Of a DNA stretch of 4,772 nt, positions 1 to 4,561 are shown piece by piece. The stretch comes from a virus (taxonomy: Duplodnaviria > Heunggongvirae > Uroviricota > Caudoviricetes): the IMG/VR virus record IMGVR_UViG_2645727810_000002. One strand, 5' to 3'. Positions within the stretch are counted from its first letter, which is position 1. Every line of letters starts with the position of its first letter. Below the pieces are notes generated by a model that saw nothing but the letters and a program-made list of their open reading frames with translations, was not told where the DNA came from and did not search any database. Made by a program: the position numbers and the translations under genes.

Positions 1-80
1 TTTCCATATTCGAGAGATTTTGCCAACGCCGCGCACGGTTCTATCTTGTTGCCATTAATTTGGCATTTTGACTCACTCAC
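1..80 (-). CDS. Hypothetical protein, N-terminal fragment only (gene runs off the left edge of the window)
   Basis: GTG at 80..78 overlaps the stop of the upstream ORF (GTGA); SD-like GGAGG at 91..87, 6 nt upstream; frame stays open to position 1 (N-term [26 protein letters not shown]). Not in the supplied ORF track because it is truncated. No family recognised. Confidence 0.35.
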
Positions 81-244
81 TGGTTGCCTCCTTTGCGCCA
101 CATCGCATTCAGATATTTGTTTTGATTCACTGACGGAGAAGAATTTCTCTTAAGCAATTCCTCTCTCGATGGCATTGGCTTTACGCGTTGGCGAATAATC
201 ATTTCTGCCGGAAGAATGCCGGGATTGTATGCAAGCCCTCTCAT
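77..244 (-). CDS. Hypothetical small protein (55 aa)
   Basis: ATG at 244..242 preceded by SD-like AGAGGAA with ~8-nt spacing, 16 nt after the stop of the 104-aa ORF; stop TGA at 79..77. Hand translation [55 protein letters not shown]. Absent from the ORF track (short). No homology recognised. Confidence 0.35.
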
Positions 245-260
245 GGTAAATTCCTCTTTG

Positions 261-575
261 TTAATTTATTTGTATGCCTGCTCTTTCTTCATCGAGTTTT
301 TTTAGCTTGTATCGCATAGCTCTTACTGAATAAATTGAGCGGCAGGTTGCAATTGCTATTTCTTCTGCGGAGAACTTACCGAAAAGTGATACTTCGGCTC
401 TTGTCCAGCGTCTTCCACGAAGTCGGCTAACAATGTCAGCGCCAATCCTTGTTGCTTTCGCCATTACTGCTTTTTCAGTCCTTTCCAGTTTTTCTGCGAT
501 AACTTCAACTGGCATTGTCGCCGCTACCTCGCGCAAGAAATCGACTTCCCATTTCTCCCATGGAGTCTTTTTCAT
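261..575 (-). CDS. Hypothetical phage protein with two tandem HTH-like modules (putative DNA-binding regulator)
   Basis: ORF-track 104-aa ORF with ATG start 11 nt after the stop of the upstream gene. Residues ~5-52 and ~55-102 align as an internal repeat (W...E.IA....R....V.A pattern). Family not recognised. Confidence 0.6.
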
Positions 576-586
576 AGGCGATACCG

Positions 587-1069
587 TTATTTGATAAGAA
601 GTGAAGGTTTCCCAACTTTGAGTTGAGCACCGGGGATATTTATTCCTGCTTTTAGTTGGTGTTTGATTGCCAGTTTGTCGGCTTTAATTGTCGTTTCAAA
701 CTCAACGTATTCAGGAGGAAGGGCGCTTGAGTCGATTATTTCTACAATTTCTGACGGTTTGCGGATTGTTACCTGGTGAATACCTGCTCGAATCTTTTTC
801 TTGCCAACCATTTCAAGCGATGCCGCTATATACGCCATAATGCTGTCAATCTTATTTTGAATTACTGCGGCTCGCTCATTCAGCGACCTTGCCTCTTCCT
901 TGAGGCGTTCAGCATAACCAGATTCATTTTTAATAATGGCAAGAAGTTGCTCTATTTTATCGGCAAATTCTCCTTCCATGCCTTCTATTGTGTCAGCAAT
1001 CATCTCTGGTTCTAAATCTGAATCCATCAATTTTGCGTATTCATTGGCAATTTCATACAGTTTGCTCAC
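587..1069 (-). CDS. Gp157-family-like coiled-coil phage protein (recombination-associated; possible host-nuclease inhibitor)
   Basis: ORF-track 587..1075 uses a TTG at 1075 that abuts the SD GGAGG (1080..1076); GTG at 1069..1067 has correct 6-nt spacing, so start set to 1069. The 5' end overlaps the recT 3' end by 17 nt. Helical, charged N-terminal half and beta-rich C-terminal half, ~160 aa, adjacent to recT, as typical for Siphovirus Gp157 (PF05565) or Mu Gam-like proteins. Family call is from memory. Confidence 0.6.
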   Translation of the reverse strand: MSKLYEIANEYAKLMDSDLEPEMIADTIEGMEGEFADKIEQLLAIIKNESGYAERLKEEARSLNERAAVIQNKIDSIMAYIAASLEMVGKKKIRAGIHQVTIRKPSEIVEIIDSSALPPEYVEFETTIKADKLAIKHQLKAGINIPGAQLKVGKPSLLIK

Positions 1070-1964
1070 TGGCAACCTCCAGTTTCGCTTTGCATTCTAT
1101 GTAAATGGCTTGTACGTTCTGCTGCAATTTCATTCCAGATGTCAGGCGATATGCTTCTGCAAAATATCGCTTCAAATCATCCATGTTTTCTGCATGAGCC
1201 ATTTCATCGCAAAGAAGTTGTGCTTTATCCATTATTTCCTGCTGGCGTTTCCGTTCATCTTCGCGGATATCTTCCTCTGATTTGTGCGGCATAACTGGTT
1301 CAGTCCACACACCTTCTTCTTCGTTTAGTACGTGAATAGCACTATCAAGACGTGATGCCTTAGGCCAATACTTGCTTGCACGCTTTACGACCGTCTTTCG
1401 CGCCATCTCATTCCAGTGATTTACCCATGGTCCTTTATCGCTGAATGCTGCCTTGCTTGTTTTCCTTACAGCCTCAATTTCAGCCAGACTCATCTCTTCC
1501 GTTAGATAATCACCTGCTGGCGTCTTAACTGTGCAGTAAACACCAACAATATCACCACGATCACCGAAGGCGTTGTATTTATGGGTTGGTGCTTTATCAA
1601 GCCCGTTTGACTCATAGGTATCGTTAGCTTGAACAAGTTTTGCCTGACCCCATGAGATAACACCAGACTCCATTGCAATATGGAGCAATCCCATATAACT
1701 GATATCAAGGCACACCATGCCGTCGCGCGGAACCAGATAAGCCAGTTTGCTAGCCGGGTTTAAGGTGATACCGATCGCCGCAACATTGATGATGGCGTTC
1801 TGTGCGCTGGTTGGATTTGCCAGTGCTGTTTTAGCCAGGTAATCATTTTTCTGGAAATACTGAATTGCAAACTGGCTTTCCTTAGCCCATGTCACCGTCT
1901 GTTCAGTCAATGCTCCGCAGAATAACTGCTCTTGCTGTTTAACGAATTCAACGATATTGCTCAT
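1053..1964 (-). CDS. recT: RecT-family single-strand annealing protein (phage recombinase)
   Basis: 303-aa ORF. Segment GPWVNHWNEMARKTVVKRASKYWPK closely matches the conserved RecT motif (E. coli Rac RecT ...GPWVTHWEEMAKKTAIRRLFKYLP...). SD GGAG ~7 nt upstream of ATG 1964; start overlaps the upstream stop (ATGA). Confidence 0.9.
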   Translation of the reverse strand: MSNIVEFVKQQEQLFCGALTEQTVTWAKESQFAIQYFQKNDYLAKTALANPTSAQNAIINVAAIGITLNPASKLAYLVPRDGMVCLDISYMGLLHIAMESGVISWGQAKLVQANDTYESNGLDKAPTHKYNAFGDRGDIVGVYCTVKTPAGDYLTEEMSLAEIEAVRKTSKAAFSDKGPWVNHWNEMARKTVVKRASKYWPKASRLDSAIHVLNEEEGVWTEPVMPHKSEEDIREDERKRQQEIMDKAQLLCDEMAHAENMDDLKRYFAEAYRLTSGMKLQQNVQAIYIECKAKLEVASEQTV

Positions 1965-2272
1965 GCTGCTTCTCCATAAACGTGTCTGCGTTTGAATATT
2001 GCGAAGGCATATTCAGCCTTAACTCTTTCGGTTATTGCATCCCAGAACCATTCAGCGGCTTTTTCCTGATAGTTACAGTCATAATCTTCCAGCCAGTCGA
2101 TAGCGTCCTTAGTGTGTTCATCTGGTTTATATGAGCGAAGCATTTCGCTTATTGGGTCGCAACGTTTGCAGAGGCGATCAACTTCACTGTTGATTCGTTC
2201 GTAATCTTCATCAGTAAAACTTGCGATTATTTGCGATATTTCACGCTCATCTTTCAGAGTCAGAATCATCAT
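1961..2272 (-). CDS. Hypothetical small acidic protein (103 aa) translationally coupled to recT
   Basis: ATG-ATG at 2272..2267 with SD AGGAG (2281..2277), 4 nt before the first ATG; stop overlaps the recT start. About 24 D/E versus about 15 K/R; contains a CKRC motif plus one more Cys. No family recognised. Confidence 0.65.
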   Translation of the reverse strand: MMILTLKDEREISQIIASFTDEDYERINSEVDRLCKRCDPISEMLRSYKPDEHTKDAIDWLEDYDCNYQEKAAEWFWDAITERVKAEYAFAIFKRRHVYGEAA

Positions 2273-2357
2273 CTTTCTCCTGTTCTTTGTGCTGATTGAG
2301 CATTTCTTTCATCTGAAGAATGAATTCTTCGTCTGACCAGTTATCTGTAAAACTCAT
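2247..2357 (-). CDS. Possible small ORF (36 aa) overlapping the cIII stop and the start of the 103-aa gene
   Basis: ATG at 2357..2355 overlaps the cIII-like stop (ATGA); weak SD-like AAGG ~6 nt upstream; hand translation MSFTDNWSDEEFILQMKEMLNQHKEQEKDDDSDSER; stop at 2249..2247. It overlaps the next gene by 26 nt in another frame, so may be spurious. Confidence 0.2.
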   Translation of the reverse strand: MSFTDNWSDEEFILQMKEMLNQHKEQEKDDDSDSER

Positions 2358-2524
2358 GGACGGCCTTGTTGTTTCAAAATATCCCAAAGCTTTTCGAGCA
2401 AACTTTTCATTCTTGGTTGTTTAAAGTCTGCTCCGGTTAAAATATTTTTTCGTGAATGCTGTACCGATAAAATCGGGTTGAAAGGGCGAACCGATGCCGC
2501 CCCTGCAATAGCGAACTGTTGCAT
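2354..2524 (-). CDS. cIII: CIII-like protein (putative FtsH/HflB protease inhibitor stabilising CII)
   Basis: ORF-track 2354..2629 has an implausible N-terminal extension. The internal ATG at 2524..2522 has SD AAGGAG with 6-nt spacing, giving 56 aa MQQFAIAGAASVRPFNPILSVQHSRKNILTGADFKQPRMKSLLEKLWDILKQQGRP. The MQ.AIAG start, the SLLE-containing segment and the size resemble lambda CIII as I recall it. Position in the leftward operon matches lambda cIII. Confidence 0.55.
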   Translation of the reverse strand: MQQFAIAGAASVRPFNPILSVQHSRKNILTGADFKQPRMKSLLEKLWDILKQQGRP

Positions 2525-2595: not shown

Positions 2596-2615
2596 GGCCC
2601 TCACACTGGAGGGCA
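2596..2615 (-). terminator. Candidate rho-independent terminator inside the leftward operon (tL1-like position)
   Basis: On the minus strand: GCCCTC-CAGTGT-GAGGGC (6-bp GC-rich stem, 6-nt loop) followed by CTTTTTATAT. Sits in the 220-bp gap between the 51-aa ORF and the cIII-like gene. Confidence 0.45.
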
Positions 2616-2743: not shown

Positions 2744-2899
2744 TCAACACCCCACATGTTTGTTACCCAGGATAGTTTTTTCGTACCGTTGACAAGATTC
2801 AGACCACATAAACTGACTTCCATGCGGGCGAGTTTCGATATCTGTTATCTCTCCCGGCCGAACAAAACTGGTATTCGACTTCGTTATTTTTACTTTCAT
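2744..2899 (-). CDS. Hypothetical small protein (51 aa), translationally coupled to the upstream 83-aa gene
   Basis: ATG at 2899..2897 overlaps the upstream stop (TAATG); stop TGA at 2746..2744. Hand translation MKVKITKSNTSFVRPGEITDIETRPHGSQFMWSESCQRYEKTILGNKHVGC. Not in the ORF track (short). An antisense plus-strand ORF (2756..2959) covers the same DNA and is judged the shadow. Confidence 0.35.
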   Translation of the reverse strand: MKVKITKSNTSFVRPGEITDIETRPHGSQFMWSESCQRYEKTILGNKHVGC

Positions 2900-3150
2900 T
2901 ACTCATCCCCAAGAGCTTTGCTGATTGCTGACTGTGCTTTCGATACTTCATCAGGATAATGGTCATTCCAGCTTTGCTTGTATGCCTTGTTTAGCATCGC
3001 TTGCAGAGCTTCAAGCAAATCAGGAGCTGCCTCCATCAATCTCAAATCACCACGATGTATGGTTGTATCGTCAAACGTGACATAAACACCATCATCGTTG
3101 AATCCAGTGCCAACAACACTCCACGGCCTTTTCATTCTTTCTACGGTCAT
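2899..3150 (-). CDS. Hypothetical protein (83 aa), first gene of the leftward early operon (occupies the position of lambda N but is not N-like)
   Basis: ORF-track 2899..3156 begins at a GTG that is part of the SD (GAGG 3159..3156); ATG at 3150..3148 has 5-nt spacing. Protein MTVERMKRPWSVVGTGFNDDGVYVTFDD... is net acidic with no arginine-rich motif. No family recognised. Confidence 0.6.
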   Translation of the reverse strand: MTVERMKRPWSVVGTGFNDDGVYVTFDDTTIHRGDLRLMEAAPDLLEALQAMLNKAYKQSWNDHYPDEVSKAQSAISKALGDE

Positions 3151-3322
3151 ATTCACCTCTGTTGTTTATGCCAAAAATATCTTTTTCTATATCAAAAAGC
3201 TGCTTTGCTTTTTGTGACTAAAAGCAAAAAAGCCTTCTCGCTAATGAGCAGCATTGCCGTTCATCCTGAACCCGCCGCGCTCCCGACGCATGGTTTAATG
3301 TCGCGCCGTTCGACATGGCTTA

Positions 3323-3351
3323 ACTATATTCAAAGCTATTATTGCTGTAAA
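3323..3351 (-). promoter_or_regulatory. Candidate pL-like early-left promoter
   Basis: Minus strand: -35 TTTACA (3351..3346), 17-nt spacer, -10 TATAGT (3328..3323); predicted start near 3316, giving a ~165-nt leader before the ATG at 3150. Overlaps operator-like motifs. Confidence 0.45.
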
Positions 3352-3364
3352 TAGCTATAGTTAT
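3326..3364. promoter_or_regulatory. Candidate OL operator sites (two copies/variants of the ATAGCT-NN-AGCTAT motif)
   Basis: 3351-3364 ATAGCTATAGTTAT (one mismatch to the palindrome consensus) and 3326-3339, which reads ATAGCTTTGAATAT on the minus strand (good left half, degenerate right half); centres ~25 bp apart; they overlap the candidate pL -35 and -10. Additional AT-rich palindromes nearby (AGTTAT-AAA-ATAACT at 3359-3373; AATAAC-N7-GTTATT at 3367-3385). Confidence 0.4.
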
Positions 3365-3443
3365 AAAATAACTCCTTTGGTTATTTAGTCATTGATATCT
3401 AATGTAATTTATTTTTCTTGTATGTGAGATTTGGTGTTTTTTG

Positions 3444-3476
3444 GGCAATAAAAAACCCGCAAAAAGCGGGTTTGTT
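3444..3476 (-). terminator. Rho-independent terminator immediately downstream of cI (hairpin is bidirectional, strongest for the minus-strand transcript)
   Basis: Stem AACCCGC / GCGGGTT with AAAAA loop (3454-3472). On the minus strand the hairpin is followed by TTTTTTATT; on the plus strand by TTTGTTG. Lies ~15 nt after the cI stop. Confidence 0.75.
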
Positions 3477-3490
3477 GTGGTGTGATGAGG

Positions 3491-4222
3491 TTAGTAGTCA
3501 ACTACAGACCACCAGAAGATTCTTCCGATGATCTCGATATCGCTTAGATTCTTTTCTTCTTGTGGGTATTCCAGTGAGTTAAAGCTTCTAATGCTTACCT
3601 TGTCAGGCCCTGATCGAAAGAGAATCTTAATGCGTTTCCAACCGTTCTCGTTAATGGCGTAAATCTTTCCGTCAACTATTTTCTTATCGTTGGTGTTAAC
3701 AGCAACTGTTGTTCCATCAGGAATGTTTGGCTCCATGCTGTTGCCACGAGCCGGAAAACAAACAACCCCGCTTCCATCACTGTTCGCGCCAACTCTGCGA
3801 AGGGTTGATTTGGAGAAGCGCAACATAAAGCCGTTGTGATCTTCATCAATCACCCGACCATCCCCGCATGCAAACTCAATATCTTTAAGGTAAGGAACTT
3901 CAACTTCATCACCTCTTAAAGGCGTTCCTCCATCCCATGGGTCCAAATATCCCCACGTGCTTTCATGAGGAATAGAAGATTTTGGATTATAAGGTTCAAC
4001 TCCCTCATCACGCATTGGCCCAGTCCCATCGGAAAGCCATTCCGTACGAACTCCAAGCACTTTTGATATTTCAAAAAGTTTGCGCGTATTGCGTGTTTTT
4101 CCAGACGTAAGTTTCCAGACGCTTGGCTGAGACATGCCAACAGCATTGCCAAGAGAAGCCTGAGTAAACCCAGCCTGATCCATCGCGTATGTAAGCCTTT
4201 GAGAAAAAGTATCTAGTTTCAT
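3491..4222 (-). CDS. cI: CI-like phage repressor (N-terminal HTH DNA-binding domain plus C-terminal LexA/S24-type autopeptidase domain)
   Basis: 243-aa ORF. HTH-like segment QASLGNAVGMSQPSVWKL; S24 signature G-N-S-M (putative nucleophile Ser162) and W-K-R-I-K ~35 residues later (putative general base Lys196), matching the LexA/CI/UmuD Ser-Lys dyad spacing. Divergent from a cro-like gene across an operator-rich intergenic region. Confidence 0.9.
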   Translation of the reverse strand: MKLDTFSQRLTYAMDQAGFTQASLGNAVGMSQPSVWKLTSGKTRNTRKLFEISKVLGVRTEWLSDGTGPMRDEGVEPYNPKSSIPHESTWGYLDPWDGGTPLRGDEVEVPYLKDIEFACGDGRVIDEDHNGFMLRFSKSTLRRVGANSDGSGVVCFPARGNSMEPNIPDGTTVAVNTNDKKIVDGKIYAINENGWKRIKILFRSGPDKVSIRSFNSLEYPQEEKNLSDIEIIGRIFWWSVVDY

Positions 4223-4257: not shown

Positions 4258-4296
4258 ATACCTAAAGCTATTTACTTTCTGAATAGCTTTGGCTAT
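4234..4296. promoter_or_regulatory. Tripartite operator (OR-like): three 14-bp inverted repeats, consensus ATAGCT-NN-AGCTAT
   Basis: Site at 4234-4247 ATAGCTACAGCTAT (perfect 6+2+6 inverted repeat), 4258-4271 ATACCTAAAGCTAT (1 mismatch), 4283-4296 ATAGCTTTGGCTAT (1 mismatch); centres 24 and 25 bp apart, between divergent cI and cro. Confidence 0.6.
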
Positions 4297-4299
4297 TAT
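4271..4299 (+). promoter_or_regulatory. Candidate pR-like promoter for cro
   Basis: -35 TTTACT (4271-4276), 17-nt spacer, -10 TATTAT (4294-4299). The third operator overlaps the -10/spacer and the second overlaps the -35. The cro SD AGGAG (4318-4322) is followed by ATG 4331. Confidence 0.5.
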
Positions 4300-4330
4300 T
4301 CTGATTGTGAATTCAGCAGGAGTTATTTTT

Positions 4331-4561
4331 ATGGTCAACGAGGCTATTAAAGCGGCTATTGACTCAGTAGGAAGTCAGCAAAAGTTAGCTAATGCCTGCG
4401 GTGTTAAGCAGCCGTCTGTATGGGCTTGGTTGCATGGGAAGAAAAGGGTATCCGCTGAAAATGCCAAGCGCATTGAAATGGCTACCAATGGAAGCGTCCC
4501 TGCATACCTGATTCGCCCTGATTTATCCGCTTTGTTCCCCAATCCGAACAAAGCAGCTTAA
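4331..4561 (+). CDS. cro: Cro-like / YdaS-family HTH transcriptional regulator (76 aa)
   Basis: ORF-track 4289..4561 starts at a TTG inside the operator region; ATG 4331 with SD AGGAG 8 nt upstream is the likely start. HTH-like QQKLANACGVKQPSVWAWLHGKKRVSAENAKRIE; small size; divergent from cI. Confidence 0.8.
   Translation: MVNEAIKAAIDSVGSQQKLANACGVKQPSVWAWLHGKKRVSAENAKRIEMATNGSVPAYLIRPDLSALFPNPNKAA

Follow-up and report, generated by a model that had tools for sequence, protein, structure and literature searches.

Here, we analysed a stretch of DNA of 4,772 bases, taken from the IMG/VR virus record IMGVR_UViG_2645727810_000002 (Caudoviricetes) and called the window below. The window is part of the immunity and early-left (PL) region of a lambdoid prophage. 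It carries a recombination cassette built around two genes, recT, whose product belongs to a family of annealing proteins, and gp157, whose product belongs to the Sipho_Gp157 family. The genes of the RecT cassette are all located on the minus strand, in the PL operon of the prophage. In the direction of transcription, this operon consists of an open reading frame (ORF) of 85 amino acids (aa), a hairpin, a cIII-like gene, a 36-aa ORF, the gene for a 103-aa protein, recT, gp157, the gene for a 104-aa protein and a DUF2737 gene. The module is of the catalogued type 'SAP-4 + MuGam, no nuclease', which is already known and is common in E. coli. The cassette and its two borders are made of the following features:

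587-1069, minus strand: Sipho_Gp157 gene (gp157), 160 aa (PF05565, phrog_253)
1053-1964, minus strand: recT, 303 aa (PF03837, phrog_148)
1961-2272, minus strand: gene for an acidic 103-aa protein (phrog_3486, E 1.1e-57)
2247-2357, minus strand: acidic 36-aa ORF (phrog_17766, E 4e-14; phrog_2123, E 2e-10)
261-575, minus strand: gene, directly downstream of gp157, for a basic protein of 104 aa that has two helix-turn-helix repeats (phrog_323, E 2.2e-20)
2354-2524, minus strand: right border of the cassette, a cIII-like gene that encodes 56 aa when started at the ATG at 2524 (phrog_550, E 4e-22)
77-244, minus strand: gene for a small DUF2737 protein, left border of the cassette (phrog_1117)

The stop codon of the 103-aa gene overlaps the start of recT (ATGA), and the start of gp157 overlaps the end of recT, whose stop codon is at 1053-1055, by 17 nucleotides (nt). 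Because of these overlaps, and since no minus-strand terminator-like site was found within 261-2357, the five cassette genes read as one translationally coupled transcription unit. The ORFs of the cassette are all intact, they have ribosome-binding sites and overlap in a coupled manner, and neither a frameshift nor a premature stop was seen. The segment 96-2710 of the window has a nucleotide identity of 97-98% to the coliphages Gally, mEpX1, HK140, Kapi1 and others, and the recT-gp157 pair is present in 262 of 5,426 complete E. coli genomes. This identity to isolated phages and this prevalence indicate that the cassette genes are real and not chance ORFs. Antisense ORFs on the plus strand were also considered as genes and were rejected.

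RecT matches PF03837 over residues 31-217 with an E-value of 1.2e-31 and a score of 110.3 bits, above the curated threshold of 24, and it matches phrog_148 with an E-value of 1.8e-90. It is 99.3% identical to the RecT of mEpX1. From these family assignments, the protein is predicted to bind and anneal single-stranded DNA. It is divided into a core, residues 1-217 (nt 1314-1964), and a C-terminal domain, residues 218-303 (nt 1053-1313).

Gp157 is translated from a GTG codon located 6 nt after the sequence GGAGG. The resulting length of 160 aa is conserved across the Enterobacterales, and an alternative in-frame TTG start at 1075 would give 162 aa. Residues 4-6 form an L-Y-E motif that hardly varies among 158 diverse members of the family. 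The 146-aa form that starts at an ATG in the annotation of mEpX1 was rejected, since it loses this family-wide N-terminal motif. The mEpX1 gene in question, gp33 (25128-25568 of the genome), begins at an internal ATG, while the annotations of HK140 and of E. coli genomes in RefSeq use the 160-aa GTG start. Gp157 matches PF05565 over the whole profile (positions 1-162 of 162) with an E-value of 5e-36 and 124.5 bits, above the cut-off of 28.6, and PF05565 is matched by all 33 aligned Gp157 relatives. The match to phrog_253 has an E-value of 1e-52. The conserved residues L4, Y5, D26, T27, K38, E59, P118, K132, G142 and G147, each found in at least 87% of the 158 diverse members, are all present, and the protein is 97.5% identical to its counterpart in HK140. 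In the AlphaFold2 model, which has a mean predicted local distance difference test (pLDDT) score of 85, Gp157 consists of a short helix, a long helix of 67 residues [21-87] and a small C-terminal domain. The charge is split between the two halves of the protein, with an isoelectric point (pI) of 4.3 for residues 1-88 and of 9.85 for residues 89-160. The Gp157 family is very large, comprising 21,310 clusters at 50% identity (E at most 1e-3), and it still bears the uninformative label 'resistance protein'.

Gp157 is similar in size to Gam of phage Mu, a Ku-like DNA-end-binding protein of the family PF07352, and in both proteins the N-terminal part contains a long helix and the C-terminal domain is basic, although they belong to different Pfam families and PHROGs. 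Against PF07352, Gp157 scores 17.4 bits (E 0.0044), below the cut-off of 28.3, whereas the score of Mu Gam itself is 144 bits, and its PHROG is phrog_491. PF07352 is nevertheless the commonest secondary match in the Gp157 family, found for 8 of the 33 relatives, always below threshold and beside coiled-coil noise. Profiles built from 158 Gp157 sequences of a representative search and from 53 Mu Gam relatives of IMG/VR loci were compared with hhalign. They aligned with a probability of 58% and an E-value of 9.6e-5 over 113 colinear columns, residues 28-154 of Gp157 to residues 37-160 of Mu Gam, a region that takes in the basic C-terminal domain. The reversed-sequence control gave an E-value of 0.19, and shallower profiles gave probabilities of 23% and 1.5%. 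A Foldseek search of BFVD with the Gp157 model retrieved only other Gp157 or 'resistance' proteins and recovered no Ku-like fold, and a sequence-profile search of the PDB returned nothing meaningful. Gp157 is probably a distant relative of Mu Gam, for which the sequence evidence is moderate. By analogy, it may bind the ends of double-stranded DNA.

An earlier, sequence-only reading of this DNA had described a recT annealase, flanked upstream by an acidic 103-aa protein and downstream by an overlapping 160-aa coiled-coil protein that looked Gp157- or Mu Gam-like and not like a nuclease, with no exonuclease partner in the window. This description agrees with the matches of RecT to PF03837 and phrog_148, with the match of the 160-aa protein to PF05565, with its long helix 21-87 and its 17-nt overlap with recT, and with the pI of 4.67 and the ATGA overlap of the 103-aa protein. 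The likeness to Mu Gam stands at the sub-threshold level given above (17.4 against 28.3 bits). The flanking ORFs contain no nuclease domain by Pfam and PHROGs, and the 160-aa protein does not fall into an unrelated family.

The search for a nuclease was extended from the window to its relatives. No ORF of the window matched a nuclease family in the Pfam and PHROGs scan, and none matched a family of single-stranded DNA-binding protein (SSB). In the complete annotated genomes of mEpX1, HK140, Kapi1 and Gally, there is no gene of the lambda Exo, RecE or YqaJ type anywhere. Their nucleases are limited to packaging-associated or nin-region HNH proteins and RusA, and no SSB gene of the module is found in these complete relatives. 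In the closest E. coli prophage, the genes between the cassette and int, all of which had a RefSeq name or were scanned, include no nuclease. The module of HK140, mEpX1, Kapi1 and Gally has the same gene order, overlaps and sequence as that of the window. The carriers of this type differ among themselves in the immunity region (cI, cro) on the right and the ea genes on the left, which are mosaic, and otherwise in nothing material. The content of the ea region varies freely among carriers while the cassette is constant, and the arrangement of the cassette is conserved down to a protein identity of 62%, in HK639 and phage 15G. The surroundings of gp157 were also tabulated for 80 IMG/VR loci with Gp157 proteins at least 95% identical, which are close relatives, so that the counts show the stability of the cassette and not 80 independent events:

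RecT adjacent to Gp157: 80/80
104-aa gene near Gp157: 78/80
DUF2737 gene near Gp157: 76/80
103-aa gene near Gp157, at a fixed offset: 74/80
36-aa ORF near Gp157: 74/80
homologue of lambda Exo, of the RecE-like DUF3799 protein of phage SEN22, of Abc2, of Erf or of Mu Gam near Gp157: 0/80

The commonest unassigned ORFs that flank gp157 in these loci matched no nuclease family in Pfam or PHROGs. One of the flanking proteins, of phrog_614 (160-271 aa, no Pfam family), occurs in 52 of the 80 loci.

Previously, the Rec modules of 325 lambdoid phages have been surveyed (PMC12315714, Genome Res 2025). In that survey, the nuclease gene is missing in 84 of the 246 enterobacterial lambdoid phages that have a Rec module, P22 and HK620 are also without one, and HK140 is listed as SAP type 4 with MuGam, no nuclease and no SSB. 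MuGam is described there as binding DNA ends and thereby blocking RecBCD, and HK639 is said to have both GamL and MuGam. The suggestion of the sequence-only reading that an exonuclease might be found further left is therefore not borne out by the complete phages, the closest prophage or the 80 loci, and its term 'non-canonical' overstates the case for a combination that is named for HK140 and for a state shared by 84 of 246 modules.

Sequence divergence within RecT follows the division into core and C-terminal domain. Many relatives of RecT at 65-76% identity align over residues 1-218 or 1-233 only. The RecT proteins of HK639 and phage 15G, which are paired with Gp157, have an identity to the RecT of the window of 75% in the core and 45% in the C-terminal domain. 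In contrast, the RecT proteins of the Stx phage P13374 and of Aeromonas phage 56, which are paired with Exo, have an identity of 69-70% in the core and of 9-16% in the C-terminal domain, which is unrelated to that of the window. The partner exonuclease is 88% identical to lambda Exo in P13374 and 45% identical to it in Aeromonas phage 56. In the 80 Gp157 loci, there are RecT cores of about 100% and of about 85% identity, while the C-terminal domain is constant at 91-100%; two loci with an apparent core identity of 57% are fragmentary and were left out. Judged from these alignments, the C-terminal domain of RecT co-varies with the partner gene, Gp157 or Exo, which is a small point beyond the literature. 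The pattern fits an interaction unit that would be formed by the C-terminal domain and Gp157. It is established that the C-terminal domain of lambda Red-beta binds both Exo and SSB, as reported by Caldwell et al. 2019 (NAR) and by Zakharova et al. 2024, of which the second is cited in PMC12315714. The 'shuffling of partner interaction domains' was explicitly left unanalysed in the 2025 survey (PMC12315714).

Gp157 is not restricted to RecT. The gene directly adjoins recT in HK639 and phage 15G, the Sak4 gene in Klebsiella phage YX3973, Streptococcus thermophilus phage CHPC873 and Lacticaseibacillus phage R18.1, and erf in Staphylococcus phage 42E and Streptococcus phage Javan52. This pairing with three unrelated annealing-protein folds argues for a shared substrate, for example a DNA end, or a shared host factor, and against a dedicated subunit of RecT. 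In Pseudomonas phage MPK9, the neighbour of gp157 (3258-4004 of the stretch examined) is a phrog_7838 'exonuclease' and not a recognised annealing protein. In Geobacillus virus E2, the product of the neighbouring gene (4474-5274 of the stretch examined) is 266 aa long and has an ExoX-like motif in its C-terminal part. Nucleases can thus also be neighbours of Gp157. It has been reported that, in phages of Firmicutes, erf and sak4 are usually preceded by genes similar to Mu gam and to orf157 of Sfi21, and that the RecT proteins of these phages typically have YqaJ or DUF3799 exonucleases as partners (PMC8093625).

The module of the window can be compared with several known systems. The lambda Red and Rac RecET modules likewise follow cIII in the PL operon and have an annealing protein of the RecT/Red-beta superfamily at their centre, and lambda has gam in the slot upstream of the annealing gene, where the window has the gene for a small acidic protein. 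However, Exo or RecE is present in these systems, while the window has a Gp157/Mu-Gam-like gene after the annealing gene. The erf module of P22 (arf-erf-abc1-abc2) is likewise nuclease-free, and it relies on the host. It has the same borders (cIII and DUF2737/orf56), a phrog_323 protein after the recombination genes and an Arf-like motif in the small upstream ORF. The annealing protein is Erf in P22 and RecT in the window, and the window lacks a homologue of Abc2, so that hijacking of RecBCD as in P22 cannot be assumed. The Mu gam gene is also preceded by a gene for a phrog_323 protein, gp9. In temperate phages of Firmicutes (Staphylococcus 42E, S. thermophilus, Lacticaseibacillus), Gp157 is located directly beside Erf or Sak4, usually with no exonuclease. 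The order in these modules is gp157, annealing gene, SSB gene, whereas in the window gp157 comes after recT and an SSB gene is lacking.

The small genes that flank recT and gp157 have few recognisable relatives. The 103-aa protein contains 24 Asp and Glu against 15 Lys and Arg residues, matches no Pfam family and is found in 27 protein clusters only, essentially from E. coli. Its AlphaFold2 model, small and all-helical, is of low confidence (pLDDT 67), and the search of BFVD with it gave no match below an E-value of 3. The protein has no significant similarity to GamL of HK639 (BLASTP E 5.5), no match to the Gam family in Pfam and no similarity to Arf of P22; it shares with proteins of the GamL and Gam type only its position and its acidity. 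In HK639, the same slot holds a gene for a GamL-type RecBCD inhibitor (phrog_1050; 2796-3080 of the stretch examined), and in 1 of the 80 IMG/VR loci it holds a lambda-Gam-like gene. In phage 15G, a 99-aa protein encoded two genes upstream of recT has an N-terminus weakly similar to that of the 103-aa protein (hhalign E 0.0018). The 36-aa ORF (pI 4.1) runs into the beginning of the 103-aa gene, and its N-terminal sequence WSDEEFI resembles FSDEEFI of P22 Arf, which belongs to a different PHROG, phrog_2445. Its counterpart in Kapi1 is annotated as a hypothetical gene of 35 aa.

The 104-aa protein has a pI of 9.86. It has phrog_323 (2e-20) in common with Abc1 of P22 (1e-23) and gp9 of Mu (5e-29). 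By BLASTP, it is similar to Mu gp9 (E 5e-5) and has no similarity to Abc1 or Abc2 of P22. The protein is annotated in Gally as 'Anti-RecBCD protein 1 (Abc1)', a name backed by the shared PHROG and not by pairwise similarity. In Mu-like loci, the gp9 gene is directly upstream of gam in 51 of 80 cases. Small proteins of this type are therefore repeatedly encoded next to Gam, Gp157 and anti-RecBCD genes. In the Salmonella phage SEN22 (4486-5876 of the stretch examined), the same 103-aa and 104-aa flanks are found, and recT and gp157 are replaced by genes for a 273-aa DUF3799 PD-(D/E)XK 'exonuclease VIII' and a 189-aa protein of phrog_11517. The flanks are thus not specific for RecT, and the 189-aa protein of SEN22 may be an unrecognised annealing protein.

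At the left border, the DUF2737 protein has an identity of 75% to P22 orf56, which is conserved beside abc2 in P22. At the right border, the phrog_550 match of the cIII-like protein begins at residue 36 of a longer ORF, and the sequence GGAG precedes the ATG chosen as its start. The remaining features of the window lie beyond this gene:

2597-2614, minus strand: terminator-like hairpin, tL-like, upstream of cIII
2899-3156, minus strand: 85-aa ORF
3491-4222, minus strand: gene for a cI-type repressor with helix-turn-helix and S24 peptidase domains
4289-4561, plus strand: gene in the cro position, Cro/YdaS-type, with a match to PF15943

The counterpart position of the hairpin in mEpX1 is annotated as a rho-independent terminator. 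The product of the gene in the cro position matches PF15943, the YdaS 'toxin' family, with an E-value of 2.5e-19, better than P22 Cro with 1.3e-7, and a shorter form of 76 aa is given in the RefSeq annotation of the closest prophage. A strong terminator-like hairpin is located at 3473-3453 on the minus strand, just past the cI stop codon. A promoter-like site at 3351-3323 on the same strand (TTTACA, 17 nt, TATAGT; 10 of 12 matches) is a candidate for PL, although such sites are at least as frequent in shuffled sequence.

Chi sites bear on the question of whether RecBCD is blocked. It has been reported that Chi is avoided in lambdoid phages that encode a RecBCD inhibitor besides their recombinase, and over-represented in recombinase-positive ones without an inhibitor (PMC3784561). 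The expected number reported there for lambda (2.70) was reproduced, and the sites were then counted in five carriers of the cassette:

Kapi1: 0 observed, 1.95 expected
Gally: 0 observed, 1.85 expected
HK140: 4 observed, 2.7 expected
mEpX1: 6 observed, 2.9 expected
HK639: 13 observed, 4.1 expected

These counts are heterogeneous and confounded by the mosaic structural genes, and they neither confirm nor exclude a block of RecBCD. The Chi sequence (GCTGGTGG) is co-oriented, with 6 of 6 sites of mEpX1 on the top strand, 4 of 4 in HK140 and 12 of 13 in HK639. HK639 has Chi above expectation despite encoding both GamL and Gp157, and no site is found in Kapi1 and Gally, which are podoviral carriers. 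In HK97, an Abc2-encoding phage, 4 sites were counted, as many as in HK140. The sites of HK639 have been ascribed to recent mosaicism (PMC12315714). Neither mEpX1 nor HK140 is listed in the supplement of Bobay 2013.

Based on these results, we favour, with a probability of about 0.6, the following reading. The window holds a general-recombination ('Rec') module of the kind known from HK140 and mEpX1, which this lambdoid E. coli prophage carries midway along its PL operon, with cIII on one side and the DUF2737 and ea genes on the other. It comprises RecT, Gp157 and three small accessory ORFs, has no phage 5'-3' exonuclease or SSB, and would work by capping of DNA ends and annealing of single strands. 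It presumably relies on host functions, which is the accepted reading. After derepression, transcription from PL should yield the 103-aa protein, RecT and Gp157 as translationally coupled products, to judge by the gene arrangement. Gp157 would dimerise through its long helix and bind double-stranded DNA ends, such as rolling-circle tails or cut genome ends; this is proposed from the relationship to Mu Gam and from the acidic, helical N-terminal half and the basic C-terminal half of the protein. The bound protein might then shield the ends from RecBCD and other exonucleases. RecT, following the established biochemistry of RecT and Red-beta, would coat and anneal single-stranded DNA that is not generated by the phage, that is, lagging-strand gaps at forks and/or tails left by host helicases and nucleases. 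The C-terminal domain of RecT would probably contact Gp157 or a host factor, for example SSB, and so recruit RecT to the protected ends, as its co-variation with the partner gene and the reported contacts of the Red-beta domain suggest. A more far-reaching proposal can be put forward tentatively, as a possibility that we do not expect to hold. Here, the C-terminal domain and Gp157 would be an interacting pair that is transferred together, in which Gp157 caps the double-strand end and recruits RecT through that domain, so that ends would be taken up by an 'end-capture' pathway that needs no nuclease. The products of the small genes, namely the Arf-like 36-aa protein, the acidic 103-aa protein whose gene has the place of gam and the double helix-turn-helix protein of 104 aa, would all three be unrecognised accessory recombination factors.

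Several points weigh against the end-capping proposal. If Gp157 blocked RecBCD as completely as lambda Gam does, Chi should be avoided, and the counts are mixed. The literature searches found no experimental study of the Gp157 family, this subfamily included, and no experimental demonstration of end binding for any Gp157 protein. The co-variation of the C-terminal domain, which draws on two lineages of each kind, concerns a domain and a partner gene that are adjacent on the DNA, and it could merely mark a favoured mosaic junction.

Another explanation, which we consider rather doubtful, is that Gp157 is a recombination mediator or adaptor, which loads the neighbouring annealing protein or links it to the replisome or SSB, and that its likeness to Mu Gam is superficial and due to the shared long helix. 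The gene is indeed adjacent, and often translationally coupled, to those of RecT, Erf and Sak4. The C-terminal domain of RecT co-varies with Gp157, the score against Mu Gam falls short of the Pfam threshold, and many coiled-coil families give similar scores. Moreover, Chi is not avoided in mEpX1, HK140 and HK639, and the GamL and Gp157 of HK639 would be redundant if both merely blocked RecBCD. However, the hhalign match to Mu Gam spans the basic, non-helical C-terminal domain (columns 93-156), with the motifs R-x-P-S, D-K-x-A-I and G-x-P-G-A, and one adaptor for three unrelated folds of annealing protein is less parsimonious than a common DNA substrate. The same Chi sites could be taken to mean that host RecBCD together with Chi is the nuclease partner, that this enzyme resects the phage ends and is turned to a recombinogenic mode by the Chi sites of the phage, that RecT uses the 3' tails with or without RecA, and that Gp157 modulates RecBCD instead of blocking it. 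In mEpX1, HK140 and HK639, which are siphoviral carriers, the sites are co-oriented and as numerous as expected or more so, recombinase-positive lambdoid phages that lack an inhibitor over-represent Chi (PMC3784561), and P22 offers the precedent of RecBCD hijacked through Abc2. This explanation is unlikely, as Kapi1 and Gally have the same cassette and zero Chi, as a homologue of Abc2 is found in 0 of the 80 loci, and as the equal counts of HK97 and HK140 suggest that the sites may travel with the head and tail genes and not with the Rec module.

The two remaining explanations assume that the exonuclease is hidden or lost. The 103-aa protein, the 104-aa protein or a protein of the ea region to the left of the window could be an unrecognised phage exonuclease, given that several conserved neighbours, for example the phrog_614 protein, have no Pfam family and that the slot between the same flanks holds a DUF3799 nuclease in SEN22. 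We consider this very unlikely. About 30 flanking proteins were tested, none with a nuclease family in Pfam or PHROGs, and the content of the ea region is variable while the cassette is constant. Furthermore, a small, acidic, all-helical protein and a double helix-turn-helix protein are poor candidates, and HK140 has been classed as nuclease-less (PMC12315714). Least credible is that the prophage is cryptic and the cassette a leftover in decay whose exonuclease has been lost, because the same cassette is carried by the plaque-forming or inducible phages HK140, mEpX1, Kapi1 and Gally, its ORFs are all intact and keep both their ribosome-binding sites and their coupling by overlap, and its arrangement is kept at 62% protein identity in HK639 and phage 15G.

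As it stands, the result is the correct annotation of a common prophage cassette and contains nothing new. Two leads are worth keeping, the co-variation of the RecT C-terminal domain with Gp157 and the very large, uncharacterised Gp157 family itself, whose members accompany annealing proteins with unrelated folds, both in phages of Gram-negative hosts and in those of Gram-positive ones. The pair could yield a compact, two-gene recombineering system without Exo or lambda Gam. The proposed role of Gp157 and its binding by the C-terminal domain of RecT, if shown, would explain how about one third of the lambdoid recombination modules work without a nuclease of their own.

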